DNA from: Eledone cirrhosa
Lineage: Eukaryota
DNA length: 64,000 nt
Reading direction: 5' to 3'
Assembly (NCBI GenBank): GCA_964016885.1
Contig: OZ024740.1
Span: forward strand, 221,526,001-221,590,000
The notes beneath the pieces were generated by a model. That model was given only the letters and a program-made list of their open reading frames with translations, was not told the origin of the DNA and ran no database searches. Within the stretch, counting starts at the first letter, position 1, and each line of letters opens with the position of its first letter. A program made the position numbers and the translations under genes. Of this stretch, positions 216 to 63,574 are shown one piece after another.

Positions 216-865
216 ATGAAAATTCACGTCGATTTAACCATGGTATGGATTTTTTAACTCTTTGATACTCTCATCAGTTATATTTCCTATTTTTGTTTAT
301 TTAAAATCACTCTTAATGTAATCTTCTTTTAGGAGAATGGTTATCTGTAAGCAGCTGCATGTTTTCTGTTTTAGTATAAATAGAATATAGACCATACCAC
401 ACACCCTCCGCACAAATGTAACAGCTTTGTATTTCTCTTCCCAGCAACTCCACACACACACATCCTCCATACAAATGTAACAACTTTGTACTTCTGTTAA
501 CATTCAAACATATTCATTTTTGCCGACAAGCTGTTGTTTTATATGTGTTAATTGTTTGATATTTTAATATTGATAACATATTCCAAATTTATTTCAACAT
601 CACTTCAGCAGAAATACCTTTCGGGATTTTGTTAGACTTCTTTTATTTTTCATTATAAATATGATCACTTAAGAATTTAACATTGTTTTCAATTATCGTA
701 GTAGTTGCCTCTAAGGATTGTTTAATACAAATGTTGTTCTTGTTAAAGAGTAAATGTTTACGAGAGATCTTTTCATACATAACATTTTATTATTTTTGTT
801 TATACGTTTTAACCTTTTACCTCTCTTGCAGATAGGAAGACAGGAACAGGAATAATTTTCTTATT

Positions 866-1190
866 CGATGGAAGTAAATCCTTAATCGGGGACGCGATGT
901 GTTGCGACTTGTTCTCCGCCTCCAACCTTGTTGCTTCGGCTGCAAATCCGGGCACCGCCGCTCTCAACGCAGAGGAGAGGAAGATAAGTAAATACAGGGA
1001 CTTGACCGACCTCTTTTTTTTCGTACCGGTCACCGTCGAGTCATCAGATGTCGTCGGTCCTCGCAATGCTGATTTCCTTCGTAAAATCGGAAAGACAGTA
1101 GCGCACCTGTGGAAGGAACTCCGCAAGGTGGGATGGCTGTTGCAGCGGGTGTCGCAACAATAAATTTGCTATTTTGTCAAGGTCAAACTG
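866..1190 (+). mobile_element. 3' fragment of a CRE-like non-LTR retrotransposon (restriction-like endonuclease region)
   Basis: Translation GSKSLIGDAMCCDLFSASNLVASAANPGTAALNAEERKISKY...FVPVTVES...FLRKIG...LLQRVS fits the CRE-clade pattern GK.L.WD.TC.D...AA..AE..K..KY...F.P..VET.G...FL..IG...L.QR.S. Confidence 0.75.
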
Positions 1191-2504
1191 AAACACCGTT
1201 CAGACTGGAGTGTGGAGTATGTCGCTTCCCCGCTTTCTTTCATCCCTTAATTCCCTTTTTCTTACTATTTTTCTTCTTTTCCTTTCTTTTTGTTTCTTTC
1301 TTTATTGCCATGTATATTGTACAGTTTTTATGAAATATTCTGTATTCTTTGTATTCTTAGAATAAAACTAATTTGGATCAGGATTGAGGGGGTAATTGGG
1401 TGTGGGTATGACAACCAATATAGAAGTATGCTAGTAAATAAATGCATTAAGACATAAAAAAATGAACCAATTGTATTTAAATGACAGATAGGTAGTGTAA
1501 TAAATATCTATACACCATATGGTAAGTGTGATTAAGGTTCATTTCGAATGTTTATATGGGGTAAGAATGGGGCGAGGAAAATGATTTAGTTCTTTGAAAG
1601 TTATTTTGCACAGAGATTATTAGTCAAGGCTTCATGTAATGATTAGACTAAGATAGATAGTAGTGAGGTGTGGTATAAAGTATATAGGTCCTATTGATTA
1701 GATACTCCTGCAGGAATAGGGGAACATTGGTGTAGAGATAGAAGTATACAAATAAAATAACCAATAGGCATGTGATTCGAGAGTGTTGGTTAATGTAAGC
1801 TTAATCATTTGTGAAACATTTGAATACAGAATTGAGTGTAATGTGTGTCTGTAAATTATAGGAAATTTTCTGGCGAATGATTAAATAATAGCAACATTAT
1901 AATCACTACAGAATCAGTACTTTTCAAAACGAATTCGCTGGTTGAGTCGAATAATTTTGTAAAGTCACAATGATAACGAGAAAAATAAAATGGCTGATTC
2001 AACACTAGACAAGATGGCAGTGTCATCACGCCGTCAACTTTTATAATCTATTAGTCTTTTAACTGACAAACATGGCCTATAATTTAGTTGCCACTAGCTA
2101 TTGGATAAAATATCTCACGATTTTCCGCTTGTTTTCTTTCGTCTTTTATGTTTCTACCTCTATGAGTTTATTTTTCTTCTTGACTGTGTCTTAAGTGCCA
2201 GAGAGTAAAGGAATCATAAATAAAGCAAAGAGACAAATGACAGAAAGGAAATATTTATTAAGAGAATGTGCGATAATTACAAAGTGTATTTTGTGTATAA
2301 CATGACACTTCAATTTCAATTTCATAATTTAAATATAGCAGACAAAACAGATACAATTGAAAAACAGTAGTTTTAACGATAATTTGAGGTTTTAAAGTTT
2401 ACATGTAGATTAATTGCTAACCTATGAGGTTTGCTTTATCTACTTTGTTCTGAATTCACAAGTAGTTGTGATGTTTATTACTTCCGTTAATAATATTGAT
2501 GTCT

Positions 2505-2640
2505 AATTTAGGCACAAGGCCAACAAATCTTGGCAAACTGGATTAATTCAACTTCAGTATCAATACTGGAATTATGAAAGGCAAAGTTTACCATAGAGGG
2601 ATTTGAACTCAGAATGTAAAGAACCTGAACAAATACAATG
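2505..2640 (-). mobile_element. Degenerate tRNA-derived SINE (family A) fragment
   Basis: Contains TTTAGGCACAAGGCC and ATGAAAGGCAAAGTT...GGGATTTGAACTCAG, shared with the other copies. Confidence 0.7.
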
Positions 2641-4124
2641 AAAAGATGGAGAAACAATTAAACAACATAGAAAAATCTATTTTATTTTTGTTGCGTCATG
2701 GTCCCGTTGGTCGGAACAGCAAAGGCCTTATAGCTGGAGGATGGAGAAGGAAATGTGTGAAAGAGTCAGTCAAACTCATGGGGTTCGTTCTAGTGGATGG
2801 CTATCTCCATTATCTCTTGCAGCTAATAAGGAGGTGGTTTTGGGACCTAGGATCCTAAATGTTTCAAACGCTTTGGATTCGACAAGAAATCTATTTAAGA
2901 ATGGCCTGTACTCAGTCAACTTGCGAGCTTTAATCTGTCGGACGACTGAGTCTAGTTCTGACTCTGATTTCACCAAATTAACGCTGTAGATTATACCGCA
3001 GCAGATAAGAGGCTTACAACATCGAAAGACATTTACTTAAGCGAATAAGTTAAACACGTATCTAAAATAAGTTCAAATGTACTTCATAAGAGAAACAGAA
3101 AAATAACATCATGTTATTTAAATATTCTTAAATGTAGGTTAAAGATAATTAGAATATATTGAATCTAGTGTAGTAGTTTAGACGACTGCGAGAACATCAA
3201 TCTTTTAAAAGGTGGGAGGAGGGGAAGAAAAATGTATTTAAGATGATGAATCTTCCATTAGTTTCGTTGAAAAAGATTTAGTTGTTCAAACAACTAAACT
3301 CTCCACTGTTGAATTAACGTGTAAGTGGTTCAGTATTTCGTAGTCACGTGTACATTTAATGTAATTCTCACGCAGATTCAACGTGAGATAATATGTGACA
3401 AAGCCGGACGAAGCTAAACGAGGTAGTGGTAATATGTTTGCTGGTATATAATTGAGAGAACTCATAATGATAAAAATGATAACGTAGGTACCTAGGGAGG
3501 AGAAACATATAAATTTAACTCCTGATGTTAAGCGAATCTGGAAAACATACAAGGTCGTGATTGTTAGTGGTAGTAAGCTGCACAGGCAGCACCTCGAAGG
3601 GTGTCTATATATGTATGTCCCACCCCCTCACACATACGCACACACACACATACACACACACATATACCAAACTGGCGAAATGAACACACACGTGATATTC
3701 ATCACCCAAATTTTTCCATTTCTTCCTCATCTCACTCTCCTCTATCTTTTTATTTATTTATTTTGTTTACTTCTCATTTTACCTTCTGATGAAAGACTAA
3801 TGCCCGAATCGTTAAATTCGTTATCAAGTGTTAAATTAATATATATCTTCATTGTATTGTATCGTTTGCTCTTCGTCTACGTTTAGCACATCACATACAC
3901 ACACACCTATATATATATATATATATATGTATATCAGATAGGGTGCGGTAAAAAACCAGTTAGACCATAACCCACCAGAGTACTCGATACTTGGGGTAGT
4001 AGAGTGGGTAATATGAAAAGATTCAGGAATCCGACGGCTGAGCTCCGGCAGTTTCGACAGCTAGATCCGAACGGATCTGAATCTTTTCATATATATATAT
4101 CTTTTCATATATATATATATATAT

Positions 4125-4730: not shown

Positions 4731-4905
4731 ATATATGTATATATCTATGTTTATCTCTCTTTATTATATTAAATTATATTATACGGCTCGGAAAATGTTT
4801 TCCTTGAGCTATTTTAATTGTAAGGGACTATTCTGAGTTTCTAACTCAATATATACTTTTGACATACATACATACATACATACATACATACATACATACA
4901 TACAT

Positions 4906-5303
4906 GGTGGCTGCCAACTCGTTTTCGAGTACGGCCACTACTTTATATCCATGTAGGAGAACTCCTACCGATGCGCTGAACGAGTGTGACTTTTTAGTCC
5001 AGCCAGTTGAAAACTCTGGTACAAACACTACACTTGTGACAATTATTGATACATAGTGCTGGGCCCATGGTACCATGTGACGACATGTGCAGAGAGATCT
5101 CCAGATATAAAGCAATGCCTGTGCCGTGAAGCTTTTATAGTGAGCAAAGGCACTGCACAAAGCCAGTCCCTCTCTCTTAACCAAGATGATATTTACCAAA
5201 AAGAAGAACATGACAACATTATTGGATACCATCAGAGTTGCAGGTGTTATATCAGAGTTTTCCTTCTCCTAGAATTCTGCCTTGACAAAGGCTAAGGGGT
5301 CAT
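4906..5303 (-). mobile_element. Non-autonomous RTE-derived element (5'-truncated copy 1)
   Basis: Near-identical to 18015-18412, 18515-18912 and 56770-57180; (CATA)n on both sides. Confidence 0.9.
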
Positions 5304-5338
5304 ACATACATACATACATACATACATACATACATACA

Positions 5339-5372
<34 letters not shown>

Positions 5373-11200: not shown

Positions 11201-11409
11201 CCCTCTCTATCTCCGCCTAGAAGATTTTCTCTGGGAAGCCATTTAAAATTACAACGGTTGTTCAAACTACGTGAGCTGTGTTGATTTATGCCTATGTACT
11301 CATTGTTTATGTATGAACATCCAGTCTGGGTTCCTGGATATAAAGACTTCAGCTACAGATAATGTATTTAAGTACTAGTACAGTATGTGTGTGTGTGTAT
11401 GTGTGTATG

Positions 11410-11443
<34 letters not shown>

Positions 11444-11469
11444 TGTATGTATGTATGTATGTATGTATG

Positions 11470-14400
11470 TCTTTCTCTTAATTTCGAGTATATTTTTTTG
11501 ACCGGCCACCTTCCTGGTGGCAAGATTGTAAAAGAAAAGAAATTGTCATCCCTTGAATCGCAGAATGTTTTGCAAATTTTGAAGGTGCCAGCTATCGCAG
11601 CCATTTGTAGACTATGAATTAGGGAGCTGCGCTTTTTGTCCGCAAATCCAAGTTCAGTCATACTTTGGTCTAAGCGGGTTGGTATATAACCCGTAGCTCC
11701 AATAATGATGGGTATGAAGCTAAAGGTGTATCTTGGATACTGGATTTGTAAACTCCTCATCAATGGTCCGCAGATGTCCTCCTTCTCCTGTATTTTTCTG
11801 ACAACGTTTACATCAAGTGGGCAGCTGATCTCCACAACAGAACACGTTTTCAATGTGTGGTCCCAAACAACAATATCAGGTCGGTTGTGCTTTAATTTGG
11901 TGGCAGTTTTTATTTTCAGGTTCCACCAGTATTCCTTAGTGCCATCTGTCTCAATATATTCCTCCTCATTTGTTGTTAATTTTGTTTTCCGAAGTGCGTT
12001 CCAGATGGTTCTAGCTATCCCAACGTGTCTCATGGGGAGGTAGTAGCGAGATGACATTCTTTCGCAGCTGGCAACAATGTGGCTTACATCCTCGATCTTT
12101 GTTTTACATAGCCTACATTTATTTTCAGCTGCTGTCCCTCCTCTTTTGTGCAGCAGATATTTGGTAGGGAGTTCTTGTTCCTGTATTGCATAGAGATATC
12201 CCTCAAGGTGTGATGTCGTAAACTTGTCGGAACTCCATGCCAGGCTTTTTGAGTGGTTTATCCCCTCTATGGTCTGTGTTTTATGCCTCAAGTATCCATG
12301 CACAACTTTTTCTGTAAATTGGTCAATTTTTTAATCTTGTTTGAACATTGAATAGGATCTTCCGATTTCTCTGGGTGAGAGATTTATATCAGGCTTTATT
12401 CCATATCTCTCCTCCAGATCAGTCGCTATTCTAATGATATTTTTTTTTTCATGCTCATAAACCTGGGCAAGATGGTTGCCAACCTTTTTCCTCTGTTGAA
12501 GGTGTTGCTTCAGTGTTACTATCCGGGTCTCATATGTTGTTAATATTGATTTTAGACCCCGGCCACCTTCTTTGCGTGAGAAGTATAGCCTATCCACATC
12601 ACCATTGATGTTAAAGTTCCCAGTAACACTGAGAAGTTTTCGAGTTCTAACATCCATCTCACTTAGTTCTCGCAATGACCAGTTCAGCAGGCCAAATGTT
12701 GGCGTTAGAATTGGCACAGCATAAGTATTGTGTGCAATGTATTTGTTGTATGCTGAAGTTCTGATGACCATATTTTCTTTACTCTTCTGAGGTATTCAGT
12801 TCTGGTTCTCTCCTTATTTATGGGTCCATCATATCTGACATTCTCATCCTGTCCAAGACATCTGTAGTTGTCACCTGACTGCAGAGGTTGTATTGTCAGG
12901 CCGTTCATCTCTAGATTTCTAGAGGAGGGCACAGCTCTTCCACGTTTTACTGCCAAATATGCACACTTGGACTCACCAAATTTCATTTTGATGTCGGTTG
13001 AAAATTGTGTAATGAGGTCCAATTGTTTCTTGATGTCATTGATATTTGGCCCATACAACTTCAGGTCATCAATAAAGAAAAGATGGGAGATACTTCTGGG
13101 CCCACTTCTTTGTCCACCTTGTTTCCTGAGTAGGTAAGATAGTGGATTCAGTGAGAGAACAAAGAGTATCAGTGACAAGCTATCACCCTGAAAGATGCCC
13201 TTCTGGTAATGTATCTTATCAGTCTTAACTTGCTCCTTGTCACCTCTAAGGATCAAATTGGTGTACCAGTTCTTGGTCAGGCGTTCAACAGCAGCTACCA
13301 ATGGTTGTGGGACTTTAGCTAACTGTAAAGCCTTAATAATCCACCCATGAGGTACACTATCAAATGATTTTTGATAGTCCAGCCACACCACAGTCATGTT
13401 TCTGCGATTCTTTGTTGTTTTTTCCTGAATCATTTTGTTGGTTAGTAGGTGATCTATGCAACCCCACACCCCCCTCTTTCCACCAGCTTGCTCAGGTGTT
13501 ATGATGTTGGTAGCACAGTGATCCTGTAAGAACAGGTTAAGGCACCCAGTATATAATTTATACATGATGTTTTGGCAGGCTATTGGGCGGTAATTTTTAG
13601 CAAGGGTGGTTTGGCTATTTTTGGGAATGAGGAGCGTAGTGGCAGTTGATAACCATCTGGGCAGTTCTTGTGTGCCTTTAATGGTTTCTGTAAACAGCCG
13701 TATGAGATATTGCCGATAGAAAGTGAAATTCTTCAACCAGTATCCTGTAATGAGGTCTGGGCCTGGCGATTTCCTATTCGACATTTTCTGTAGAGCTGTT
13801 TCCAGTATTGACCCATCTATGTCATATTGTTTTATCTGGACATGTTGGCAGTAGTCCTGTTCCAGTTATTTTAGCCAATTAGTTTGTCTGTTGAATCCGT
13901 CATCCGTTTCCCATACAGATCTCCAGTAGCTCTCAACCTGTTCTTTTGAAGGGGTGTCGTTTACAGGGATTGAGCTTTTGCCACCGAAGCTGCGATAAAC
14001 TGATTTAGGATCATTGGCAAACAATCTATTTAGCACTTGTCGTTCATGTGCTGTTGACTTATATTTTAGTCTTTCTGTTGTAGCTGTGAGTTGTTGTTTC
14101 AACTGGTGTAATTTGGAGTTCAAAGTTTTAAATTTTGTATCTCCAAATCGTCTCTCTAACTTTTTCTTTAGGTCTTCCTGGTGTCATGTGAAGTTGCTCT
14201 CTATGTTGCATTTCATAACGACTGCGATGTGTGAGATACTTCGTCTCAGGGACAAAATTTTGGTTTTTAAATTTCGCATCCACGCTGGTTCAGGCTTTCT
14301 GTTTGTATCTTGATTGCGTGGTTTTAGATGTGTGTTATATGATAGCAATGTGACAGCTGAAACATATAACAAAACATTAAGCGTTTCAAATGTCGTTTCT

Positions 14401-15470
14401 ACACCTTTAGATCGTATAGCCTTCAGATAATTGCCAGCTATTTCCTTCACCGCTTCCAATTCCACTTTAGTGGGTTCTTTCCTGATTCTGGTGTTGTATG
14501 GTCTGTCACTCACATTAAGGCTGTGTATCTCTTGAAACATATCGTCCCATATCACTTGTAGGGTGTCCACAAGTTTTTGGTGCTCTGTTTGTTCAGTAGA
14601 GTCATGAATTTCAGCCTCGTTGTTGATATGGTGACAATTACTACTAGAGTTAGCTGACCTTTCTCGCTGTTCTTCAGTGGAAGTGGGATGGATTTCAGCA
14701 AAATTGTTGGTGAGCTGTTCACTGTTAGATTTAGCTGGCCATTCTCTTTGTCTGTCAGTGGAGGTGGGGTGGTTGTCTACAAGGGATGTATTTGTAGTAT
14801 CACTCAATTCCGTTAGATGTATCAATTTACATCTAATGATACGTTTTGCCTGTTCATTTAAATGTTTTGGAGAAAAGTCTAATTCTGGGTGTTTGGAGTT
14901 CCATAAAGTTTTTAGCCTTTGCATAAAACCGAACTTTTGGGGTTCAGATTGTTTGTATGCTTCATATAATACTTTGTTAAGCTAGTAGCTCCACTGTATA
15001 CAACGGTTGTAGTTGCGATTTGGTCGAAGGAGACTTGTACTTTTTGCCATGATAAGTTCGTCTATTCACTAATATTTCGTATTTAGTTTTCAAAATAGTC
15101 GATGATCTTCTTTAAAAGTTTCGACAAAGTTATGCCAGAATCAAATTTAAAGTTATTCACAGCTTGGGTAATATTTCTTTTCAGTTAGTTTTTAATTCTA
15201 CAACTGTGTCTTAAACGTTGTTCTTGAAACGTGTGAATCGAGAACAAAAAGAACCGTTACTTAGTATATTCCTTTATGAATGTAATATAATATAACAACG
15301 CTGTATTTATATGTTAAAGTTTATGTATCATTCACATAAATAGGTGTTCTACAACATATTCACAGTTCAAACACTTATGTTTTTGTTTCTGAATCGAAAA
15401 CGTTACTTGTATATTTCTTTATAAATGTAATATAACAACGTTGCATTTATATGTTAAAGTATATGTATCA
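11470..15470 (-). mobile_element. Near full-length, degenerate R4/Dong-clade non-LTR retrotransposon (RT + CCHC + RLE)
   Basis: Single ORF from about 15050 (MAKST...GFMQRLKTLW), broken by stops and frameshifts. RT motifs KSPGPD, NYRPIAC, WLDYQKSFDSVPH, GIFQGDSLS and HLFFIDDLKLY; zinc knuckle CRLC...HIVASC; RLE RH...RPDIVVWD...VVEISCP...KED. (TATG)n on both flanks. Confidence 0.92.
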
Positions 15471-15545
15471 TGTATGTATGTATGTATGTATGTATGTATG
15501 TATGTATGTATGTATGTATGTATGTATGTATGTATGTATGTATGT

Positions 15546-16231
15546 TTGGAAAGCTCTATGTGTGACAGTATAGAAGCTCTTGTGCTTAAGCAGCGACTCC
15601 GTTGGAGTGGTCACCTTGCCAGGATGAAGGATTCTAGAATACCAAAACAACTCTTCTATGGAGAGTTGGTTAAAGGAAAACGACCGCCACATAAACCAAA
15701 AAAGAGGTATAAGGATTCCTTGAAGGCCTCTCTGAAAGACGCTAACATCTCTGCTGATACATGGGAAAATATTGCTGCTGATCGTAATAAATGGAGAAAG
15801 ACTGTATATGAGGGAAAAGTTGCCTTTGAGGCATCTCGAATCGCACACGAGAAAGTAAAGCGGGACGTGAGGAAGGGTATTGCTGTTGCACTTCCAGACG
15901 GCGAGGGTCCTCCTATGTTTCTGACATGCAGCGTCTGTGCGAGACTCTGCCTAAGCAAAGCTGGACTCGAAAGTCATCTTCGCAGTCATAAAGTAAGACC
16001 AGTGGTTGACTACCAGGCTGCTGTTGGAGATGCTACTCATCATGCTTGCCAAACATGTGGTAGAGAATGTAAATCAGCAGGAGGACTCAAGCGACATGCA
16101 AAAGTACACGAACTCCAACCACAGCCGACTATTCCCAGTAAATGTTTTGGTTGCCGACTCTGTGCAAGACATTTTAGATCATTGGCTGGGCTAAAAAGCC
16201 ACATTCGATCGCAGCACTGTTAGTTGCTATC

Positions 16232-16269
<38 letters not shown>

Positions 16270-16348
16270 GCTTATGTGCGTGCGTGTGTGTGTATATATA
16301 TATGAATATGTATATTATTGTTGTTGTTGTCGTTATTAATATTATTGC

Positions 16349-16397
<49 letters not shown>

Positions 16398-16517
16398 GTT
16401 ATTAATGTATGTGTGTATATATGTGTGAGTGTATGTGTATGTATGTGTGTGTGTATATATGTATGTATGTGTATGTATGTGTGTGTATATATATGTGTAT
16501 GTATATATATATGTATA

Positions 16518-16550
<33 letters not shown>

Positions 16551-16584
16551 CTTTTCCCTTTTTTTTTTTTTTTTTTTTTTTTTC

Positions 16585-16644
<60 letters not shown>

Positions 16645-16730
16645 TTTTTTTTTTTTTATTTTTTTTTTTATTTTATTTATTTTTTTTTTATTGTGCAATG
16701 GCCATACTCGATAACGAGGGGGCAGCCATC
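15546..16730 (+). mobile_element. 5'-truncated RTE-clade LINE (family 1) with three C-terminal C2H2 fingers
   Basis: LRWSGHLARM...RIPKQLFYGEL..GKR RTE C-terminus, then CSVC..HLRSH, CQTC..HAKVH and CRLC..HIRSQH. The 3' UTR is interrupted by microsatellites. Terminal GGCCATACTCGATAACGAGGGGGCAGCCATC(ATGT)n. Confidence 0.88.
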
Positions 16731-16751
16731 ATGTATGTATGTATGTATGTT

Positions 16752-17715
16752 ATCTCTTTCTCTTAATTTCGAGTATATTTTTGACCGGCCACCTTCCTGG
16801 TGGCAAGGTTGTAAAAGAAAAGAAATTGTTTATGTATGAACGTCCAGTATGTGTGCCTGGATATAAAGACTTCGGCTACATATAATGTATTTAAGTATTG
16901 TACAGTATGTGTGTATGTATGTATGTATGTATGTATGTATGTATGTATGTATGTATGTATGTATGTATGTATGTATGTATGTATGTATGTATGTATGTTA
17001 TCTCTTTCTCTTAATTTCGAGTATATTTTTTTGACCGGCCACCCTCCTGGTGGCAAGATTGTAAGTATGTATGTATGTATGTTATCTCTTTCTCTTAATT
17101 TCGAGTATATTTTTGACCGGCCACCTTCCTGGTGGCAAGGTAGTAAAAGAAAAGAAATTGTCATCCTTTGAATCGCAAGAATGTTTTGCAAATTTTGAAG
17201 GTGCCAGATACCGCAGCCATTTGTAGACTATGAATTAGGGAGCTGCGCTCTTTGTCCGCAAATCCAAGTTAAGTTGTACATTGGTCTAAGCGGGTTGGTA
17301 TATAACCCGTAGCTCCAATAATGATGGGTATGAAGCGCTAAAGGTGTATCTTGGATACTGGATTTGTAAACTCCTCATCAATGGTCCGTAGATGTCCTTC
17401 TTCTCCTGTATTTTTCTGACAACGTTTACACCAAGTGGGCAGCTGATCTCCACAACATAACGCGTTTTCAATGTATGGTCCCAAACAACAATATCAGGCC
17501 GGTTGTGCTTTAATTTGGTGGCAGTTTTTATTTTCAGGTTCCAACAGTATTCCTTAGTGCCATCTGTCTCAATATATTCCTCCTCATTTGTTGTTAATTT
17601 TGTTTTCCGAAGTGCGTTCCAGAGGGTTCTAGCTATCCCATCGTGTCTCATGGGGAGGTAGTAGCGAAATGACATTCTTTCGATCTTTGTTTTACATAGC
17701 CTGCATTTATTGTCA
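16752..17715 (-). mobile_element. Stacked 3' fragments of the R4-clade element (RLE region plus three 3' UTR ends)
   Basis: 17081-17700 is a close copy of 11470-12115 with a deletion. Extra 3' ends at 16752-16828 and 16998-17062, each abutting (TATG)n. Confidence 0.88.
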
Positions 17716-17800
17716 GCTGTATGTATGTATGTATGTATGTATGTATGTATGTATGTATGTATGTATGTATGTATGTATGTATGTATGTATGTATGTATGT

Positions 17801-18412
17801 CTTTATGTCAGGTCACCAGTTGGTGCTACTGGTAACATGTATCCCAGTACAACCTGTCTCATGGTCGGATCGTTGGCGACTAAACTGGCAACCCCACCAA
17901 GGTTTCTTGGTGAGGAGGGTGACTTTGGACATCCTGCAGGACAAAAAAAAAAACCTGTCAAAGGCCAAAGGAGCTCTTAAGAGTCAATGGCCATCCAAAA
18001 TCACCAGGAGAGATGACCCCTTAGCTTTTGTCAAGGCAGAATTCTAGGAGAAGGAAAACTCTGATATAACACCTGCAACTCTGATAGTATCCAATGATGT
18101 TGACTTGTTCTTCTTTTTGGTAAATATCATCTTGGTTAAGAGAGTTGGACTGGCTTTTTCAGTACCTTTGCTCACTATAAAAGCTTCACGGCACAGGCAT
18201 TGCTTTATATCTGGAGATCTCTCTGCACTTGTCGTCACATGGTACCATGGGCCCAGCACTATGTGTCAATAATTGTCACAAGTGTAGTGTTTGTACCAGA
18301 GTTTTCAAGTCGCTGGCTGGACTAAAAGTCACACTCGTTCAACGCATCGGTAGGGGTTCTCCTACATGGATATAAAGTAGTGGCCGTACTCGAAAACGAG
18401 TTGGCAGCCACC
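17801..18412 (+). mobile_element. Non-autonomous RTE-derived element, longest copy (copy 2)
   Basis: The 5' part contains CTAGGAGAAGGAAAACTCTGA. The 3' ~170 bp match the RTE at 61500-61669. (ATGT)n on both sides. Confidence 0.88.
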
Positions 18413-18454
18413 ATGTATGTATGTATGTATGTATGTATGTATGTATGTATGTAT

Positions 18455-18912
18455 GTCAAAGGGCAAGGGAGCTCTTAAGACTCAATAGCCATCCAAAATC
18501 ACCGGGAGAGATGACCCCTTAGCCTTTGTCAAGGCAGAATTCTAGGAGAAGGAAAACTCTGATATAACACCTGCAACCCTGATGGTATCCAATGATGTTG
18601 ACTTGTTCTTCTTTTTGGTAAATATCATCTTGGTTAAGAGAGTGGGACTGGCTTTGTGCAGTGCCTTTGCTCACTATAAAAGCTTCACAGCACAGGCATT
18701 GCTTTGTATCTGGAGATCTCTCTGCACTTGTCATCACATGGTACCATGGGCCCTGCACTATGTGTCAATAATGGTCACAAGTGTAGTGTTTGTACCAGAG
18801 TTTTCAAGTCGCTGGCTGGACTAAAAAGTCACATTCGTTCAGCGCATCGGTAGGGGTTCTCCTACATGGATATAAAGTAATGGCCGTACTCGAAAACGAG
18901 TTGGCAGCCACC
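18455..18912 (+). mobile_element. Non-autonomous RTE-derived element (copy 3)
   Basis: Tandem, 5'-truncated copy inside (ATGT)n. Confidence 0.9.
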
Positions 18913-19052
18913 ATGTATGTATGTATGTATGTATGTATGTATGTATGTATGCATATATATATATATGTGAATGGATGTGTGGATGGATATTAATATGTAT
19001 GTATAAATGTAAATATGTATGTGTGCGTGTATGTATATATGTATGTATGTAT

Positions 19053-20364
19053 GTTTACCTTGTATTTCGCAATGGTGTTCTTCATGGCCTTCAAGGATGG
19101 TCAACACGGTATCTATCTCAGATATCGCACTTCCGGCAAGCTCTTTAACCTCAGGCGTCTCACTGCCAACACTAAGGTATTGAGTACCTTGATCAGAGAA
19201 TTTCTATATGCAGATGATTGTGATCTGTTTGCACACTCCCAGAGTGACATGCATCATCTTAAGAATTCTTTTTCCAATGCGTGCAGTGCTTTGGGACTGA
19301 CAATCAGTCTGAAGAAGACTGTCGTCATGTACCAACCTGCTCCGGATAAAGTTTTCAATGAACCCTCCTTACACGTATACGGTCAAAAGCTGAAGGTTGC
19401 TGACACATTTGTGTACTTGGGGAGTACTCTGAGTGTGGCCTGCTCTCTGGATGCAGAAGTTGGTCTACGTGTTAGTAAGGCAAGTGAGTCATTTGGAAGG
19501 CTCCAGTGACCGTCTTTGGTGCAGGCGAGGAATCACAATGAGGACCAAGGTGAGAGTTTATGCTGCATGTGTACTGTCAGCTTTGCTGTATGCATGTGAG
19601 ACATGGGTTGCCTACAAACGGCATGTCCACAGACTGGACCGGTTTCACCAGCAGTGTCTCAGAAAGATGCTTGGTATCAAGTGGCAGATGCATGTGAGTG
19701 ATGTTGAGGTCCTTGAGAGAAGTGAGTATCGGAGCATTGAGTGTATCATCCACCAATGGCGTTTGCAATGGACCGGACACATCTGCAGAATAGAGGATGA
19801 TCGAATCCCAAAACAACTCTTGTATGGTGAGCTTTGTGAGGGTAAGAGACAACCTCACAAACCAAAGCTCCGATTCAATGATTGTGTAAAGGACTCATTG
19901 AAAAAACTGGTTTGATGATGGCTGACTGGGAGATAGCAGCTCTTGAAAGAGAGACTTGGCGTGGAATGGTGAATGATGGGATCCATAAGTTTGAGGACAG
20001 ACGCATAGAGGACGAGAAGATCAAACGGGATGTGTGTAAGCAATGCCCTGGTGTATCTCTCGAAACGATCGGTGTCTCCATTGAATTGAAGTGCCCTGAG
20101 TGTGGAAAAATTTGGTTGAGCAAATCTGGTCTCAGGAGCCACAGTCGCAGCCATGCTCAAAGAGAACCAGTGAACTATGATCTCCACGGTGTTGTGAGAG
20201 TTCACAGGCAACCTGATGCAAGACCTCAGGCCAGGGAGATCCATGGTTGTCGTCAGTGTGTGAAGGAGTGCAAGTCTCTAGCAGGCTTGAAAAGCCATAT
20301 GCGAGCGTCACACATCTGAACCTGACAAGCGATTGCAATACTCTTAGCAGAGTTTACAGCCATC
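19053..20364 (+). mobile_element. 5'-truncated RTE-clade (BovB-like) LINE (family 2) with two C2H2 fingers
   Basis: GIYLRYRTSGKLFNLRRL, FLYADDC, FVYLGS, LLYACETW, RIPKQLLYGEL; CPEC..HSRSH and CRQC..HMRASH. Frameshifted. Confidence 0.92.
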
Positions 20365-20399
20365 ATGTATACATGCATGAACGTATGTATGTAAGTATG

Positions 20400-20491
<92 letters not shown>

Positions 20492-20789
20492 AATATGTGT
20501 GTATGTATGCATCTACGTATGTATATATGTATGTATGTATAATTAATTTAAATATATGTGTGCATGTATGTGTGCATCTCTACTGGTGTATCGCTATGAA
20601 AATTCTTACATTTCACACACATACATATACATCTTCATTTATACATATATACACGAAGTTGCATAAATACACACATACATATTTATCTATCCATGTGTAC
20701 ACTCAGACTTTTCCTCTAGGGGTGAGTAAAAAAACATTCAACCAAAGCATCAAGGCACACACATATTTACAAGTGTGGGGTGTAAATGG

Positions 20790-21339
20790 CATAGGCTGAC
20801 TATGAAAAAGTAATGCTAGTTTTGTGGGATACTAAAGGCATTGTGTTTATTGATTATCTTCAAAAGGGCCACACCATAAAACGAGAGTACTATGTCGATT
20901 TTTTGAGGCATTTGTGAAAGGCTATCAAGACCAAATGCACAGGATAACTGACAAAAGGGGTCTTGTTTTATCAGGATAATGTTCCTATACACAATTCGTT
21001 GTTTCGAAGGCTGCTGTGCGTGACTGTGGCTTTGAACTGGTTGATTACTCTCCTTATTCTCCTGATTTGGCTCCATCTAACTATCATCTGCACCCTAACA
21101 CGAAAAACCCTTGACTGAGAACCAGTACAGCAGTGATGATGACGTCATATCTGCTGTTGGCTTTTTTTTTTTTTAACCAACAGGATGAAACCTCCTTCCT
21201 CAATAGGAACCAAGCACTGCAACATCGATAGAAGAAATGTCTGGGCCGCAAGGAGGACTATGTTGAAAATATACCTCATTTGGTCATATTCCCTGAGAGT
21301 ATCTTGCTCAGTCTATGAACTTTTCAGCCGACCCTCGTA
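20790..21339 (+). mobile_element. mariner transposase 3' relic with right TIR
   Basis: Translation VLWDTKGIVFIDYLQKGHTI...FYQDN...YSPDLAPSNY. Ends CTATGAACTTTTCAGCCGACCCTCG-TA. Confidence 0.88.
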
Positions 21340-24023: not shown

Positions 24024-24967
24024 GAAACTACATCCTTCCTTCTGGATCTCCGTTGTCTTCGAAGAGGAGTGTTCCACTTGTTGAAACTACATCACTCTTT
24101 CTGGACCTCCGTTGTCTTCGAAGAGGAGTGTTCCACTTGTTGAAACTACATCACTCTTTCTGGACCTCCGTTGTCTTCGAAGAGGAGTGTTCCACTTGTT
24201 GAAACTACATCACTCTTTCTGGACCTCCGTTGTCTTCGAAGAGGAGTGTTCCACTTGTTGAAACTACATCACTCTTTCTGGACCTCCGTTGTCTTCGAAG
24301 AGGAGTGTTCCACTTGTTGAAACTACATCACTCTTTCTGGACCTCCGTTGTCTTCGAAGAGGAGTGTTCCACTTGTTGAAACTACATCACTCTTTCTGGG
24401 CCTCTGTTGTCTTCGAAGAGGAGTGTTCCACTTGTTGAAACTACATCACTCTTTCTGGACCTCCGTTGTCTTCGAAGAGGAGTGTTCCACTTGTTGAAAC
24501 TACATCACTCTTTCTGGGCCTCCATTGTCTTCGAAGAGGAGTGTTCCACTTGTTGAAACTACATCACTCTTTCTGGACCTCCGTTGTCTTCGACGAGGAG
24601 TGTTCCAGTTGTTGAAACTACATCACTCTTTCTGGGCCTCCATTGTCTTCGACGAGGAGTATTCCAGTTGTTGAAATTACATCCTTCCTTCTGGACCTCC
24701 GTTGTCTTCGACGAGGAGTGTTCCAGTTGTTGAAACTACATCACTCTTTCTGGGCCTCCATTGTCTTCGAAGAGGAGTTTTCCAGTTGTTGAAACTACAT
24801 CACTCTTTTTGGGCCTCCATTGTCTTCGACGAGGAGTATTCCAGTTGTTGAAACTACATCCCTCTTTCTGGGCCTCCGTTGTCTTCGACGAGGAGTGTTC
24901 CAGTTGTTGAAATTACATCCTTCTTTCTGGACCTCCGTTGTCTTCGAAGAGGAGTGTTCCAGTTGTT
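24024..24967. repeat. 59-bp tandem repeat, ~16 copies
   Basis: Unit GAAACTACATCACTCTTTCTGGACCTCCGTTGTCTTCGAAGAGGAGTGTTCCACTTGTT; no spacers. Confidence 0.97.
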
Positions 24968-51087: not shown

Positions 51088-51468
51088 TTACAATTGCGGT
51101 GATCGGCCGTGTCTTTCTCCTCTCGACCACTCAGTCCTGAACTTAAGTTCTCTTATCGAGTGGTCTTGGATTTCCTATCGTACATTGCTCGGATGGTGTT
51201 TTTTTTTGCTGTTTTGTTACTGTTTCCTCTTTTCTTCTCCTTTGCTTTCCTTCCCTCCTTCTTCCGTTTTCCCAATAATTTATCCAGGTATTGACGCCCT
51301 GGGGCGCGGTATATTGTCTTTAAAGCGTAGAAATATCCGAGACCCCAGTAGACAACTGATGAAACTTCCCTCCCCCGTTCTTGCTTTCTTCGTATTCCCA
51401 CTGCATTTTAAGTTACCTTAAATAGCAACTACACAGCCATTTCTATTTTCCATACACACACACACACG

Positions 51469-51563
<95 letters not shown>

Positions 51564-51590
51564 ACACACACACACATATATATATATATG

Positions 51591-51657
<67 letters not shown>

Positions 51658-51658
<1 letters not shown>

Positions 51659-56101: not shown

Positions 56102-56769
56102 TTGTGTGTGTGTGTGTATGTGTGTGCGTGTGTGTGTGAGAGAAAGAGAGAGAGAGAGGGGGGGGGTAGAGAGAATGTTTTTTTATATATTTATATTCCG
56201 GCTCTGTAAAACATCTGATGTATTTACATTGAGCTATTTTTCTTACAGGTAATAAGGTGGTAATGAATTACTGACCTTTCCTGTTTATAATTATATATAG
56301 AGTATATATAAATATAAATAATAATATTATTATTATTATATATATATATATATATATATATTATATTGAGGCTAGATAGTGAGTCTATATATAGGAAATA
56401 CAATAATATCAAACTAGAATTTTAACTTTGTTAGTGTATTTGTGTTTGTAGATTAAACTAACAAAAACAAAGAAAACACAAAGAATATTACTACACATTT
56501 CTTGGGTAGGGGCAGCAGATACAAATATTAATTTCATGCGTTAAAACACAAATTTATGCAGTGAGAATTTTTGGATTAGGGACGGGGGAATTGAAATGAA
56601 TTAATAACTTGTTCAATTTATTTAATAATTCATAATAACTTGGCTTATCACAACTACCACACAGTTTGAAATTCAAATTAATACACCTGTCACAAGTACA
56701 TTCATATGTATGTATGTATGTTTGTATGTATGTATGTATGTATGTAAGTATGTATGTATGTATGTATGT

Positions 56770-57180
56770 CCGGGAGAGATGACCCCTTAGCCTTTGTCAA
56801 GGCAGAATTCTAGGCGAAGGAAAACTCTGATATAACACCTGCAACTCTGATGGTATCCAATGATGTTGACTTGTTCTTCTTTTTGGTAAATATCATCTTG
56901 GTTAAGAGAGTGGGAATGGCTTTGTGCAGTGCCTTTGCTCACTATAAAAGCTTCACGGCACAGGCATTGCTTTATATCTGGAGATCTCTCTGCACTTGTC
57001 ATCACATGGTACCACGGGCCCAGCACTATGTGTCAGTAATTGTCACAAGTGTAGTGTTTGTACCAGAGTTTTCAAGTCGCTGGCTGGACTAAAAAGTCAC
57101 ACTCGTTCAGCGCATCAGTAGGGGTTCTCCTACATGGATATAAAGTAGTGGCCGTACTCGAAAACGAGTTGGCAGCCACC
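56770..57180 (+). mobile_element. Non-autonomous RTE-derived element (copy 4)
   Basis: Near-identical to copies 1-3; (ATGT)n on both sides. Confidence 0.9.
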
Positions 57181-57207
57181 ATGTATGTATGTGTGTGTGT
57201 GTGTGTG

Positions 57208-57241
<34 letters not shown>

Positions 57242-57269
57242 TGTATGTATGTATGTATGTATGTATGTA

Positions 57270-60200
57270 CATTTCCATTTTGCGTGTTTCATGATGACAT
57301 GAAGGTATGGGTAAATGTTGGTGGAAAGCTCTCTGAGCCGGTGACGGTCGAGAATGGAATCAGACAGGGTGACATTCCAGCTCCAACGCTCTTTGCTTTG
57401 TACTTTTCCATTGTCTTCGAAGAGGCCTTCGGGAACTGCAATCATGGTATATATGTTCGCTATCGATCAACTGGAAAGCTGTTTAATATCAGGAGGTTCA
57501 ATGCTAAGTCAAAGGTTCACTTGTCACTAATCAGGGATTTGCTTTATGCAGATGACTTGCGCAAGTTATCGGAGAAATGGAGGCCTACAAAATTAACATC
57601 CTGGGCCTCAGCGAGGTCCGCTGGACTGACTCTGGGAAGTTTGTCCATGAAAACAAGACCATCCTGTTCTCAGGCCGTCAGAACGGGACCCACCGAGATG
57701 GAGTTGCAATCATCATGGAGAGGGCTGCCAGTGGTGCCCTTGAGGAGTGGACTCCTATCAACGAACGCCTAATGACAGCAAGATTCACCACATCACATGC
57801 AAAGGTCACCATAGCTCAGTGCTATGCTCCAACCAACGAACATAACGATGATGACAAGGACGCTTTCTACCAGCAACTACAAGATGTTGTAAACAAAACC
57901 CCACGTCATGACATCCTAATCATCATGGGAGACATGAACGCACAGATCGGGAGAAGCAGGGTTGGCTTTGAACATGTCCTTGGCCCCCATGCTTATGGAA
58001 ACCGCACGGACAACGGGGACTGGTTTGTCCAGTTCTGTTGTGCCATGAACAATATGAAAATCGGCTCGTCACTATTTGACCACAAGAACATCCACAAGGT
58101 CACATGGGCTTCGAACGACCACAGGACCAAGACGCAAATAGACCACATTGCGATTGGCCCAAGTTGGAGAGCTCCTTGCCTGCAGGACGTCCGAGTCTAC
58201 CGGGGCGCAGATGTCTGCAGTGACCACTATCTGTCTGTTACCAAACTTAAAATCAGACTGAGGAAGCAGAAGAAGAGAGCACTCACTACAAGGCGTTTTG
58301 ACACTACCAAGCTGAAGAACGGTGACACAGAAGCACAGTTCGAGGATGCTTTGAGGAACAGATTTGCTGTCCTTGAGGAGTCTGCACCAGGCTCGGTCAA
58401 TTGGTGGGAGGAAATGAAGAAGACCATGGAAGCTGCAGGGGAAGAAATCCTGGGCTACAGGAAGTCCCTCAGAGAAGCTTGAGTCAGCGACAACACCTGG
58501 CAGCTGATTAATGAAAGGAAAGCCCTACACCAGCAGAGGCATGCCACTACCGCAGAGGCCATCAAGGTATATCAGCGGTATGTTGACAAGGACAAGGAGG
58601 TGAAACGCAGCGGCCAAAAGGACAAACGAATGTGGCTTGAGGGTAAGGCAGAGGAGGCGGAAGCAGCTGCGGCACGCAATGACATGCGCTCTGTATACCA
58701 AATTGCCAAGAAAATCACCGGCAGCTCTAGAGCTAACTCGGGCCCGGTGAAAGCGAAAGATGGTACGCTGCTTTCCAAGGGTGAAGTAAAGTTAGTCAGA
58801 TGGGCTGAACATTTCAAGGAAGTCCTCAACCGACCGGAGCCACGTGTGCCAGCAGACACTAAGGAACCTATTAGTTTGTTGCCTATTAATTCTGATGACT
58901 TCACCGAGAAGGAAGTCCGCATGGCCATCAAAACCCTTAAGAATAACAAGTCACCAGGTATAGATGGCATTTCTGATGAAATGCTGAAGTCAGGAGGCGA
59001 AAGCATGGTCAAGTGGATGGGCCACTTATGTAATCTTGTGTGGAACACGGGTGAAGTCCCAGAAGATTGGAGAAACAGAGCGGTTGTCTGTATCCCCAAG
59101 AAGGGCAACCTTGCCGATTGTGACAACTGGAGGGGAGTGACAGTTCTCTCCATACCAGGGAAGATCTATTGTCTGATGATCCTGAACCGCATACGTGGCA
59201 TGGTAGACCGGGAACTGCGAGAACAACAGGCAGGGTTCCGACCAAAACGTTCCTGTGCAAAGCAGATCTTTACGTTACGCCGCATCATTGAGAGGTACAA
59301 CGAATTCCAGAGGCCCCTCGCCGCCAGCTTCATCGATTTCTCCAAAGCATTCGATAGCATTCATCGGCCGTCACTCTGGAGCATCATGCATGAGTATGGT
59401 CTGCCCCAGAAAGTCATTTCGGCAATCAAACAGATTTACGCAAACTCCAAGTGCTGCATACGGACAGAGGATGGTTACAGTGATTGGTTTGAGGTGGTTA
59501 CTGGTGTGCGTCAGGGTTGCTCGCACTCTCCAATTCTCTTTGCCATAGCCATTGACTGGGTACTAAGAAGAGCGTCTAAAGACCAGGGTATATATTGGGT
59601 GGGAGAGCAAAAGTTGTCTGACCTGGACTTTGCGGACGATATTGTTGCACTTGCAGAGAGCACAGCTGACCTGCAAATCATTATGAACAATATCAATGTC
59701 GAAGCAGGAAGCTTAGGTCTCAATATCAGTGCTAAGAAGACCAAAAGCATGTTATCTGGGACACACCCATCACCAACTAGTGTTTTCATTGAACAGGGGG
59801 AGGTGGAGATAGTGGACAACTTCACCTACCTAGGAAGCTCCATTGACAATGGGGGCACCATGGACAGTGAATTGCAATGTAGAATGGGAAAAGCTTCAGT
59901 AGCATTTAACCAACTTGTCAAGATCTGGAAGAGCAGGAAGTTCACCCTCAAAACAAAGATGAGATTCTACAACAGCAACGTGCTGTCCACACTCTTGTAC
60001 GGAAGTGAAACATGGCACCTTAAGACCAGCCAAGAGAAGAAGTTGGACGCATTCGATTCCAGGTGTCTGCGAAAGATCCTGGGGATTAAATGGAGTGACC
60101 ATGTAACAAACCAGGAAGTCAGGAACCGCACCAACCAGCAGCTAGTCTCTTCTGCCATCTGCAAGCGACGCCTGAGCTGGTTTGGGCACGCTTTGAGACT

Positions 60201-61669
60201 TCCCCGGAGAGACTGGCGAACCAAGTACTTAAATGGAACCCACAGAGAAGCAGATGGAGAGGGCGACCCAAAATGAACTAGCGCCAGACAGTTGAGAGGG
60301 ACCTGCGAGCGACAAACAGACAATGGCGGGACGCTGTGAAACTGGCTGCTGACCGAACGCGGTGGAACACTATGATTGCCTCATGCGTCGCAAGACGCGG
60401 GAGCTTCTGAGTCTGAGTCTGAGATGACTGTGACCTGGTAGCGCACACGGAGATTGATATGCAGCATCTCATGGATGCATTTTCTAATTGGGACTTACCA
60501 TAAGCCTGAAAAAGACAGTCGCCATGTACCAACCAGTCCCTGGGATGCCATGTTGTGAGTCCAACATCTTGGTTTATAGTGAAAGGCTTATGGTCGTTTA
60601 TGGTGGTTTATGGTGAAAGGTTTATGGCCATTGGCAGTTTTGTATATCTTGGAAGCACTCTGAGTATGTCCTGCGATCTTGATGGGGAAATATCAAACAG
60701 GATACAGAAATCTAGTGATGCTTTTGGAAAACTGAACAAGCGTCTCTGGTCTCAACACGGAATTTCGGTAAAGACAAAGCTCAAAGTGTATCATGCGTGT
60801 GTGCTCGCGACACTTCTTTATGCTTGTGAGACATGGGTGGTCTACCGTAGACAGATGAAGCGACTTGAGAGGTTCCACCAGTACTGCTTACGTCGGATCC
60901 TCGGCATAACTTGGCAAATGTTTGTCAGTGACGTCGAGGTTCTGGACAGAAGTGGCTGTGATAGTGTCGAGTCCTTGATTTTGAAACATCAGGTGCGCTG
61001 GACAGGCCATCTTGTAAGGATGGATGACAAGCGAATGTCGAAACAGCTGCTTTATGGTGAGCTACAAATGGGAAAAAGAACGCGAGCAAACCCAAGATGC
61101 GTTTTAAGGACTGCATCAAGGGGGCGCTCAAGAAAAGTAACATCCCTTGTGAGCACAGGGAAGCATGCGCTAGCGACCGATCGCATTGGAGGAAAGCAGT
61201 GTCTAGTGTCAAGAGTCTATTTCAGAAAACAAGAAGAAGGCATGCGGCACTAAAAAGAGATGTCCGGAAAGGAATCCATGTTGGCCTTCACGAAGGCACT
61301 GACAGACGACCTGACTTGACATGTGAGACCTGTAATAGGGTTTGTCTGAGCATGGTAGGTCTAAAGAGTCACCTGAGAGTGCACAAGAACAGGGAAGCAG
61401 GCACCTGTGGAGCTATAAGTGTTCATCAGACGACGACATGTAATGTTTGTGGAAGGGTATGCAGGTCGAGTAGTGATCTCACACGACACCTTGGGTCACA
61501 TGATACCATGGGCCCAGCACGAGGTGTCAATAATTGTCACAAGTGTAGTGTTTGTACCAGAGTTTTCAAGTCGGTGACTAAAAAGCCACACTCGTTCAGC
61601 GCATCGGTAAGGGTTCTCCTACATGGATATAAAGTAGTGGCCGTACTCGAAAACGAGTTGGCAGCCACT
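57270..61669 (+). mobile_element. 5'-truncated RTE (BovB-like) LINE family 3 with three C2H2 fingers, split by a nested RTE
   Basis: GIRQGDIPAPTLF...DLLYADD (to 57557) resumes at 60422 with DDCDLVAH...FVYLGS...LLYACETW...KQLLYGEL. Fingers CETC..HLRVH, CNVC..HLGSH and CSVC.. (small deletion). Tail GGCCGTACTCGAAAACGAGTTGGCAGCCAC. Confidence 0.9.
57558..60421 (+). mobile_element. Nested RTE-clade LINE (APE endonuclease + RT), nearly complete ORF with a stop and frameshifts
   Basis: APE motifs ILGLSEVRW, QCYAPT, MGDMNA, QIDHI and SDH; RT motifs KSPGIDG, FIDFSKAFDS, GVRQG, DFADD and FTYLGS. (CTGAGT)n tail. 8-bp TSD AGATGACT at 57550-57557 and 60422-60429. Confidence 0.95.
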
Positions 61670-62253
61670 ATATATGTACGTACGTATATATTTATGTATT
61701 TATGTATGTATGGATGTATGTATTTATCTATGTATGGACGCATGTATGCATTTGTGTATGTTTGTATGTATGTTTGTATGTATGCATATGTATGTATCTA
61801 TGTATATGTATGCATATGTATGTATCTATGTATATGTATGCATATGTATGTATCTATGTATATGTATCTATGTATTTATATATGTATGTATGTATCTATG
61901 TGTGTGTGTGTGGGGGGGGGGTATATAACAACTACCACACAGTTTGAAATTCAAATTAATACATCTGTCACAAGTAAACATGCCCATCTTGTTACTTATA
62001 GGCAGATCTCGCTTAATACAGCCTCGTCAGAAGAATAATGCTTGACTATAGCAGACAGTAGATAGACCCAGGACACCGTCGTGAAATACCAATATATGGA
62101 ACATTACATACATGTAGCCATCTTTCTTTACTTTACTTTATATTCCTTATTCCATCGTACCTTTATCAATATTTTCTTTATCTTTTTTGAAGTTATAAAG
62201 AGCAGCTCCATAATGTTTATCTAAGTTAATTATCTTCATCTGAACCAGATCAA

Positions 62254-62611: not shown

Positions 62612-63122
62612 TTCCTTGAATCTCAGTCATTGATGTTGGTTAACTGGAAAGTCCGTTGGATTGAATATCAAGCCACTACCTGCAGCCTCAGATATTCAGG
62701 ACGTATCGGAGGGTTCTTGCCGTTCCAAGCAAGCATGCCTTTTGAAGCGTTCCAAAAAGCGTGAAGGGGCCGATTTTCTTTAACCATCCCTGGAAACTTT
62801 TGGAGATAGTCCCCAGTGCGCCTATGACAATCAGGATCACTTTGACTTCATGGCAGTTCCAAATCCTTTTCACCTCCCACTTTAGGTCCTGGTATCGGTT
62901 AATTTTCTCCCTCTCCTTCTCTTGCACTCTCGTGTCGAACGGGCAGGCCACATCCACAATCAGGCACGATCTTTTTTCTTTGTCCACAACCACCAGGTCA
63001 GGTCTATTGTGTTCCAGTTTTTTGTCCGTCTGTATCCTAAAATCCCACAGCACCTTCACCTGATTGTTCTCCATCACCGCCTCTGGCCTATGCTCATACC
63101 ATTTCTCAGAATGTGGTAGATT
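62612..63122 (-). mobile_element. 5'-truncated Dong/R4-clade RLE fragment in (TAA)n
   Basis: KWYEH.PEAV.EN...VLWDF.IQTD...RPDLVVVDK...IVDVACP...EKINRYQDL...IVIGALG...LQKACLLGTARTLR; (TAA)n on both sides. Confidence 0.9.
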
Positions 63123-63123
63123 G

Positions 63124-63173
<50 letters not shown>

Positions 63174-63574
63174 GAATGCCATGGTTGACGGAGGCTCGGC
63201 TCTGTAAGGTATTGTAATTTTTGACCGCTATAACAATTATAAATTGTTTAAAACTTTAACCAAACTGTAGACAAAAACACCCTCCTCCTCGTGAGAGAGG
63301 TCTTTCTGCCCATTATTTGGCCCTTCGGGGTTAAATAACCGCTTATTGGGGTTTTGTGCCCAATATTTATTTTAAACCCCCCAAAAACATGGCTACGAAA
63401 AAGAATTTTCACAAGTCACTCCCACTCATTCCGTCTTCTTCTTCCTCAATCGTCACTACAGTAGAGAGAAGATTGTCTCTCTCCCCCCCTTCTCTAAATG
63501 TGTCTCTCTCCCTCCCTTCTCTTTCGCAAGCCACGCCAGTAAAGAAAAATAGTTTACAAAATCACGTGCAAATC

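Follow-up and report, generated by a model that had tools for sequence, protein, structure and literature searches.

Does a transposable element found beside a microsatellite choose the repeat as its landing site, or does it leave the repeat behind as its own tail? This question is raised by a microsatellite-rich stretch of 64,000 nucleotides from the 3.0-Gb genome of Eledone cirrhosa (contig OZ024740.1, positions 221,526,001 to 221,590,000; hereafter the window), in which several long interspersed nuclear elements (LINEs) of RTE type border arrays of (ATGT)n. A preliminary description of this DNA proposed that the elements insert specifically into (ATGT)n and also write it as a tail that later insertions reuse. 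What we observe is a strongly ATGT-preferring, polar lineage of RTE-type LINEs that is wider than this genome. Its members lie preferentially in (ATGT)n, in one orientation and phase, and our reading, to which we assign a probability of about 0.72, is that they are inserted there by target-primed reverse transcription, likely guided in part by the two or three zinc fingers at the C terminus of their protein.

The window holds three coding families with C-terminal C2H2 fingers (A, C, and D) and four copies of a non-autonomous derivative, family B, in which the first 432 nucleotides (nt) of D are joined to its last 180 nt. On the plus strand, (ATGT)19 at 15470..15545 forms the target array 5' of a truncated family A copy (15546..16730) and also borders the R4/Dong-like element discussed below. 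This A copy, lacking its 5' part, retains the end of the open reading frame (ORF), three fingers (15927-15989, 16047-16109, and 16152-16217), and a microsatellite-rich 3' untranslated region (UTR), and is followed by (ATGT)5 at 16731..16750. Next on the same strand, (ATGT)20 (17721..17800) precedes a full-length B copy (B1, 17807..18412, D 1-432 plus D 3882-4061), (ATGT)11 (18413..18456) separates it from a 5'-truncated B copy lying head to tail behind it (B2, 18455..18912), and (ATGT)9 followed by a mixed alternating repeat (18913..19054) leads into a 5'-truncated family C element with two fingers (19053..20364; fingers 20092-20154 and 20248-20313). The two remaining B copies are likewise 5'-truncated: one lies on the minus strand (4906..5303), with sense-strand (ATGT)16 on its 5' side (5304-5367) and (ATGT)11 on its 3' side (4862-4905), and the other on the plus strand (56770..57180), between (ATGT)n at 56706-56769 and 57181-57268. 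Beyond the latter begins a 5'-truncated, plus-strand family D element (57270..61670; fingers 61322-61384 and 61439-61501), whose third finger is degenerate; three fingers are present in 13 of the 28 D copies scored. Nested in D is family E (57559..60423, plus strand), a distant (~30% identity to A), finger-less LINE with an apurinic/apyrimidinic endonuclease-like (APE) domain and a reverse transcriptase (RT). As had been described, it has no (ATGT)n flank; it carries a (TCTGAG)n tail, lies in non-repeat DNA with a duplication of 6-8 nt, and serves here as a non-targeted control.

All seven finger-bearing or derived insertions were thus re-found with sense-strand (ATGT)n at the 5' junction. The accompanying claim of (ATGT)n at every 3' end fails for C (from 20365) and D (from 61671), which run into degenerate mixed repeats, and the claim that all copies are differently 5'-truncated fails for the copy placed at 17801, which is full length and starts at ~17807. 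In addition, the seven insertions are not independent, as they occupy four arrays (4862-5367, 15470-16750, 17721-20400, and 56706-61900).

Across the genome, we scored the junctions of the best-scoring copies of each family (39 of A and 29 each of B, C, D, E, and the R4/Dong-like element R), mapped onto natural full-length copies. The window's own copies (five loci and its A match) were left out, as were those for which mapping did not extend to the 5' or the 3' end. A junction was counted as positive when a perfect alternating purine-pyrimidine run of at least 12 nt ended within 12 nt of it, and twenty arbitrarily chosen 10-kb stretches (200 kb) provided the background. Such microsatellites adjoin 107 of 126 5' junctions and 116 of 120 3' junctions of A-D, against a background of 13.6% and against 2/28 and 3/29 for E, so that the 5'-flank enrichment anticipated from the window holds across the genome; because the 5' counts give a binomial p of 2e-72 against background and a Fisher p of 3e-15 against E, chance is excluded as the cause of the flanks. 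Pure (ATGT)≥3 is found at 51/126 5' and 47/120 3' junctions (0.36% of random positions), and pure (AT)n at 14/126 and 28/120 (background, 4.8%). Sense flanks are G-rich rather than C-rich by 85:6 at the 5' side and 79:2 at the 3' side, and pure ATGT 3' flanks start with ATGT in 42 of 42 cases. Further full-length A 5' ends, after removal of four duplicates, show the repeat in 22/26, and a position-ordered sample (L383-L412) has a 3' repeat flank in 28/30. The latter sample has no usable 5' junctions, and what look like 5' flanks in it were disregarded, because 14 of the 30 loci belong to a second non-autonomous family whose copies have an internal alternating purine-pyrimidine stretch in common. 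This family combines the 5' UTR and the 3' end of A, and within the same sample L394 and L395 appear to reflect a 9-kb local duplication. Restriction site-associated DNA (RAD) reads from three other samples also show ATGT loose ends at the 3' end of B and, at its 5' end, ATGT as the largest listed class (1,546-2,179 reads, 0.82-0.86 agreement). Local tandem duplication of one insertion was considered as a source of the pattern and rejected: copies lie on many contigs with different truncation points, and the repeat adjoins the junction in 51 of the 62 copies that are truncated internally and not inverted.

The polarity is clearest where an exact A-type 3' end runs into AT, a combination present 5,173 times in the genome, the second non-autonomous family included. 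These ends continue as ATGTATGT in 1,610 cases, ATATATAT in 1,011, and ATACATAC in 2, and 3,359 read ATRTRTRT. In approximate ratios, this is 24-, 0.6-, and 0.06-fold, respectively, of what TAT sites in the 200-kb background would give, and 40-, 1.0-, and 0.05-fold relative to all its AT sites. Therefore, (ATGT)n is strongly preferred in a polar, phase-locked manner and the reverse strand is avoided, while (TA)n is used about as often as a plain TA rule would give in this genome. The directional preference read from the window thus extends genome-wide, and orientation and position within the target are fixed (1,610:2; 42/42) as in target-specific elements. Exclusivity does not follow: 31% of A-type ends read ATGTATGT, 20% ATATATAT, and 65% ATRTRTRT, so the proposed specificity is a strong preference, and the absence of insertions from (TA)n, true within the window, does not apply to the genome.

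Is the repeat target or tail? Per copy, the G content of the 5' flank follows that of the 3' flank (rho 0.64, n=98, within-family permutation p 0.0002), and both junctions of separate copies accordingly lie in the same repeat, as in a target-specific class. In 17/117 copies, the 3' flank agrees from its start with the copy's own 5' flank over a longer stretch than with that of any other copy, and six of these matches, of 10-133 nt, stop 0-4 nt before the 5' junction and are target-site duplications (L001, 10 nt; L107, 13; L057, 35; L056, 54; L061, 66; L005, 133); longer, imperfect ones occur at L116 and L180. Their first base, inside the repeat, directly follows the element, no repeat having been added, and some extend into unique DNA. 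Those at L005, L056, L061, L116, and L180 are unusually long, 54 to ~300 nt where 20 nt or less is usual. The element itself ends in a short (CAT/CAC)1-2, with an extra CAT or CAC unit at six junctions; these units are the real tail, and a short tandem-repeat 3' end rather than poly(A) is an RTE trait. Because flank types are concordant within copies, duplications start at +1, and the tail is CAT/CAC, the flanking repeat is mostly pre-existing target and not a written tail. The proposal that the element writes (ATGT)n is accordingly not borne out as a general rule: about one-fifth of copies are followed by pure (AT)n, the two flanks of a copy are of matching type, and the readable duplications contain no added ATGT. 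The head-to-tail stacks seen in the window do recur: another element ends in sense orientation no more than 250 nt upstream of 10/122 copies, compared with an antisense 3' end downstream of 1/120; an R-type end lies downstream of 8/120.

A full-length family A element elsewhere in the genome spans ~5.6 kb and encodes one intact protein of 1181 amino acids (aa), with Pfam matches to Exo_endo_phos (55-276) and RVT_1 (595-862) followed by three C2H2 fingers; its sense strand has no second ORF of 250 aa or more. A single long ORF with N-terminal APE and RT and no ORF1 is the RTE arrangement, and the two ORFs of R1 and Tx1 elements are absent, as judged by ORF count. Family A is very young, the best 40 of 1,526 candidates being 100% identical over 680 nt. 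Both its UTRs carry (CA)n, (TTA)n, poly-A, and poly-T, whose lengths vary between otherwise identical copies, and the family thereby spreads several repeat types. In addition, 8/39 A copies (L001, L018, L023, L024, L025, L027, L057, and L058) have 5' inversions resembling L1 twin priming, and telomere-type (TTAGGG)n filler lies at the inversion junction of L023/L047.

Multiple fingers and ATGT flanks coincide in one clade. We recovered 483 homologs of A residues 700-1181; among the best 120, a simple pattern finds three fingers in 67 and two in 16. A FastTree phylogeny of residues 481-1050, fingers excluded, places A, C, and D, all 83 of these proteins, and 13 in which the pattern finds one finger or none into a single clade (support, 100), outside which fall 24 one-finger proteins. 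An IQ-TREE analysis of a 47-row subset gives this clade 100/99, a check of support only, since rows and membership were taken from the FastTree result. The sister group has a single C-terminal finger, which we take to be the typical RTE motif, and includes a Branchiostoma protein, in a tree built without named RTE references. Among the best 80 of 276 related metagenome loci, 47 reach the C terminus with flank: 8 of 9 clade members, 47-53% identical to A, are followed by (ATGT)2-29, the ninth ending ATGTCTGTAT at the contig end, compared with (ATGT)≥2 in 0/38 non-clade relatives, many of which are near-duplicates and not all of which are placed in the tree. The directional preference is therefore also present in distant relatives. 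Of the four metagenome members with a resolved 5' end, three (L274, L275, and L277) have (ATGT)n at both ends. Relatives that have one finger and end in (CAT)n, (CAA)n, or (CATA)n lie in ordinary DNA; L283, with its short (CATA)n tail, has a tail of the same class without targeting. A PDB search returned only L1, R2, and generic finger matches, and the ESM Atlas contributed, as a lead only, eukaryotic clusters with few taxon records.

These observations suggest a mechanism in which the APE endonuclease would nick the (ACAT)n (bottom) strand at a TpA step, ACAT^A, and the freed 3'-AT would pair with the AU that ends the short (CAU)n tail of the RNA. A second nick, at a variable distance of ~10-300 nt downstream, would then duplicate part of the repeat, and each insertion would leave target on both sides, so that stacks could grow. 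The TpA nick and AU pairing alone would be enough to explain most of the polarity, along with the insertions into (TA)n; the further 24-fold preference for ATGT would need another reader, most likely the finger array. The array is favored here because the hairpin loop of the endonuclease is nearly the same in untargeted relatives and few endonuclease columns set the clade apart, while conservation of all three fingers is high, and we favor it at about even odds against the two alternatives that follow, taken together.

The first is that the endonuclease alone reads TATGT/ACATA, or an unusual alternating purine-pyrimidine structure, and that the fingers bind only RNA. In R1 and Tx1 the insertion site is described as set by APE specificity, which has a weaker role of this kind in L1 and BovB (PMC6007223, PMC13295347), and three of the only four clade-diagnostic endonuclease columns (66 versus 17 proteins) are basic (K252, R290, and R302). 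However, the loop W-x-H-P-R-S-K-H-x-H is common to the clade and to untargeted one-finger relatives, and we consider this explanation improbable on balance. The second, which is the defensible form of the earlier idea that the element writes and reuses its repeat, is homing by RNA: the transcript would run into donor (ATGT)n, and its (AUGU)n end would pair with nicked (ACAT)n in a self-reinforcing cycle that needs no protein reading. It explains both polarity and phase, for RTE the repeat ending the RNA has been proposed to pair with its target (PMC6007223), and the first 8-mer is ATGTATAT in 14/120 copies versus ATATGTAT in 4 and ATATATGT in 5. Yet the exactly readable duplications (L005, L061, and L107) have no added ATGT, the one-finger relatives with their repeat tails lie in ordinary DNA, and the many (AT)n donors would let the preference drift to the far commoner (AT)n, whereas ATGT is kept at ~50% identity; we regard it as quite improbable. 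That there is no targeting, with random insertion followed by slippage of short duplications or by retention only in repeat-rich DNA, is largely refuted already and very improbable: the genome is very repeat-rich (the 13.6% background) and RTE 3' ends are reported to seed microsatellites in Lepidoptera (PMC2887409), but long and varied flanks already surround A copies that show no difference over 680 nt, such flanks are missing from E, which shares the genome and is at least about as old, and retention is unable to yield a 1,610:2 polarity or a fixed phase.

Several observations weigh against our main reading, insertion into (ATGT)n guided in part by the fingers. The A-D junctions come from the best-scoring 30-39 of 254-3,413 candidates per family, not a random sample, and are biased toward copies most similar to those of the window; the 200-kb background is small and uneven, with ATGTATGT at 0-4.8% per TAT between stretches, which is why the ratios are approximate. 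No empty allele was seen, the other samples being represented by contigs or by RAD reads placed on family B ends. No repeat lies within 12 nt of 19/126 5' flanks. In nine of these a repeat is found 16-113 nt off, at least four of the nine being long duplications, and in 10/19 none is found within 150 nt or to the end of the retrieved flank. RAD reads contain a second class at the 5' end of B, a 21-nt non-microsatellite sequence with ~1,000-1,700 reads per listed row; this extension (L092:1300) may mark either a subfamily with a longer head or a single amplified locus. The metagenome clade member L292 appears truncated at its 5' end, and the DNA there is not a repeat. As for the fingers, their linkers are long (medians, 19 and 16 aa), small residues occupy the helix positions, and they match the zf-met and JAZ double-stranded RNA-binding models weakly, so that RNA rather than DNA may be what they bind; targeting is also seen in family C, which has two fingers. 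Finally, the number of fingers and the ATGT flank go together with common descent, which confounds them, and a single clade amounts to one evolutionary contrast.

With these points in mind, we propose tentatively, at somewhat less than even confidence, that an old, widespread RTE sub-lineage gained its specificity by tripling a C-terminal finger into an (ATGT)n DNA-reading module. This would be the third independent origin of specificity among APE LINEs and the first by finger expansion. The lineage would also have converged with R4/Dong-like RLE elements, each using the opposite strand of one microsatellite, and would enlarge its repeat through long duplications.

The window provides one such element, R (11471..15469, minus strand), a LINE with a restriction-like endonuclease (RLE), which we take to be R4/Dong-like. 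Its ORF has the expected order of RT followed by CCHC and endonuclease, with RVT_1 and zf-RVT matches and a motif RPDIV...EISCP that is presumably the RLE. In the sense orientation of R, the flank is (ACAT)n on the 5' side in 20/23 and on the 3' side in 24/29 of the scored copies (L183-L212, from at least 548 candidates genome-wide), and R served as positive control for the junction method. It therefore uses the same microsatellite as A-D in opposite polarity, a case of convergence. A second R-type family seems to adjoin many ATGT arrays. Further R 3' fragments lie at 16756-16827, 17004-17064, and 17088-17718, and 11302-11531 and 16825-17064 form a local duplication of the R 3' end with ~170 nt of its flank, possibly by 3' transduction or tandem duplication.

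Elsewhere in the window, broken ORFs at 51412-53896 (plus strand) have no meaningful Pfam match and resemble, we assume, a Penelope-like element with RT and GIY-YIG, and ~20750-21330 (plus strand) presumably holds a degenerate mariner-like transposase fragment. A C-terminal RLE-like ORF fragment of another LINE, with no Pfam match, lies beside (TTA)n at 62688-63227 (plus strand), and a 59-bp minisatellite of 16 copies (95% matches) occupies 24024-24967.

Among known systems, the RTE-clade elements BovB and RTE-1 are described, like A-D, with a single APE and RT ORF, a short tandem-repeat 3' end, a Tn-TA signature, a T|A-step junction, and a 1-2 nt overlap (PMC6007223, PMC13295347), and RTE derivatives joining a 5' UTR to a 3' end resemble B (PMC5786205). 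Unlike RTE and BovB, A-D have 85-97% of junctions in a microsatellite, fixed polarity, and two to three fingers versus one in the sister group. Weakly biased, dispersed insertion is the RTE trait that A-D lack; this has no bearing on descent, and the departure is the novelty. In octopus, RTE-2_OV and an O. bimaculoides RTE are reported, like A, as active single-ORF elements that have a C2H2 finger and whose 3' UTR is rich in microsatellites, in a genus that also harbors a Dong element, and the account consulted contains no target analysis (PMC9115989). None of four peptide motifs derived from the RTE-2_OV primers occurs in family A, and no homolog has two or more.

Microsatellite-specific APE elements, to which we take Kibi and Koshi of the Tx1 clade to belong, offer a second comparison. 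R1 and Tx1 elements carry ORF1. Mino, of the R1 clade, shares with A-D the APE endonuclease and one-orientation insertion into a microsatellite, in its case AC repeats (PMC3124438). Unlike Mino and the R1 and Tx1 elements, A-D belong to another clade and use another repeat, and full-length A has a single long ORF. The RLE elements R4/Dong, HERO, and Togen are described as using, like A-D, a multicopy microsatellite landing site (PMC4640811), which for R is the same repeat; unlike A-D, RLE elements have a C-terminal restriction-like endonuclease, opposite strand polarity, and stricter specificity.

Papers of 2015, 2018, and 2026 describe, as far as their consulted parts go, only or mainly Tx1 and R1 as target-specific among APE-type LINEs, and RTE-1 serves gene writing as a random integrator (PMC13708176). 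No microsatellite-targeting RTE was found in the published literature as far as its accounts were accessible; Repbase and Dfam lay outside the search, and a prior database entry is possible. Active targeting of the repeats, which is likely, would make the A-D lineage a third site-preferring group among APE LINEs, and a single-ORF RTE lineage with a strong polar microsatellite preference alters the picture in which only Tx1 and R1 are specific. Targeted multi-finger and untargeted one-finger sisters form a natural pair for the role of the C-terminal zinc finger in APE LINEs, and the intact, identical copies of family A make a direct test possible. The lineage might also explain why LINEs and microsatellites are coupled in the repeat-rich genomes of marine animals.

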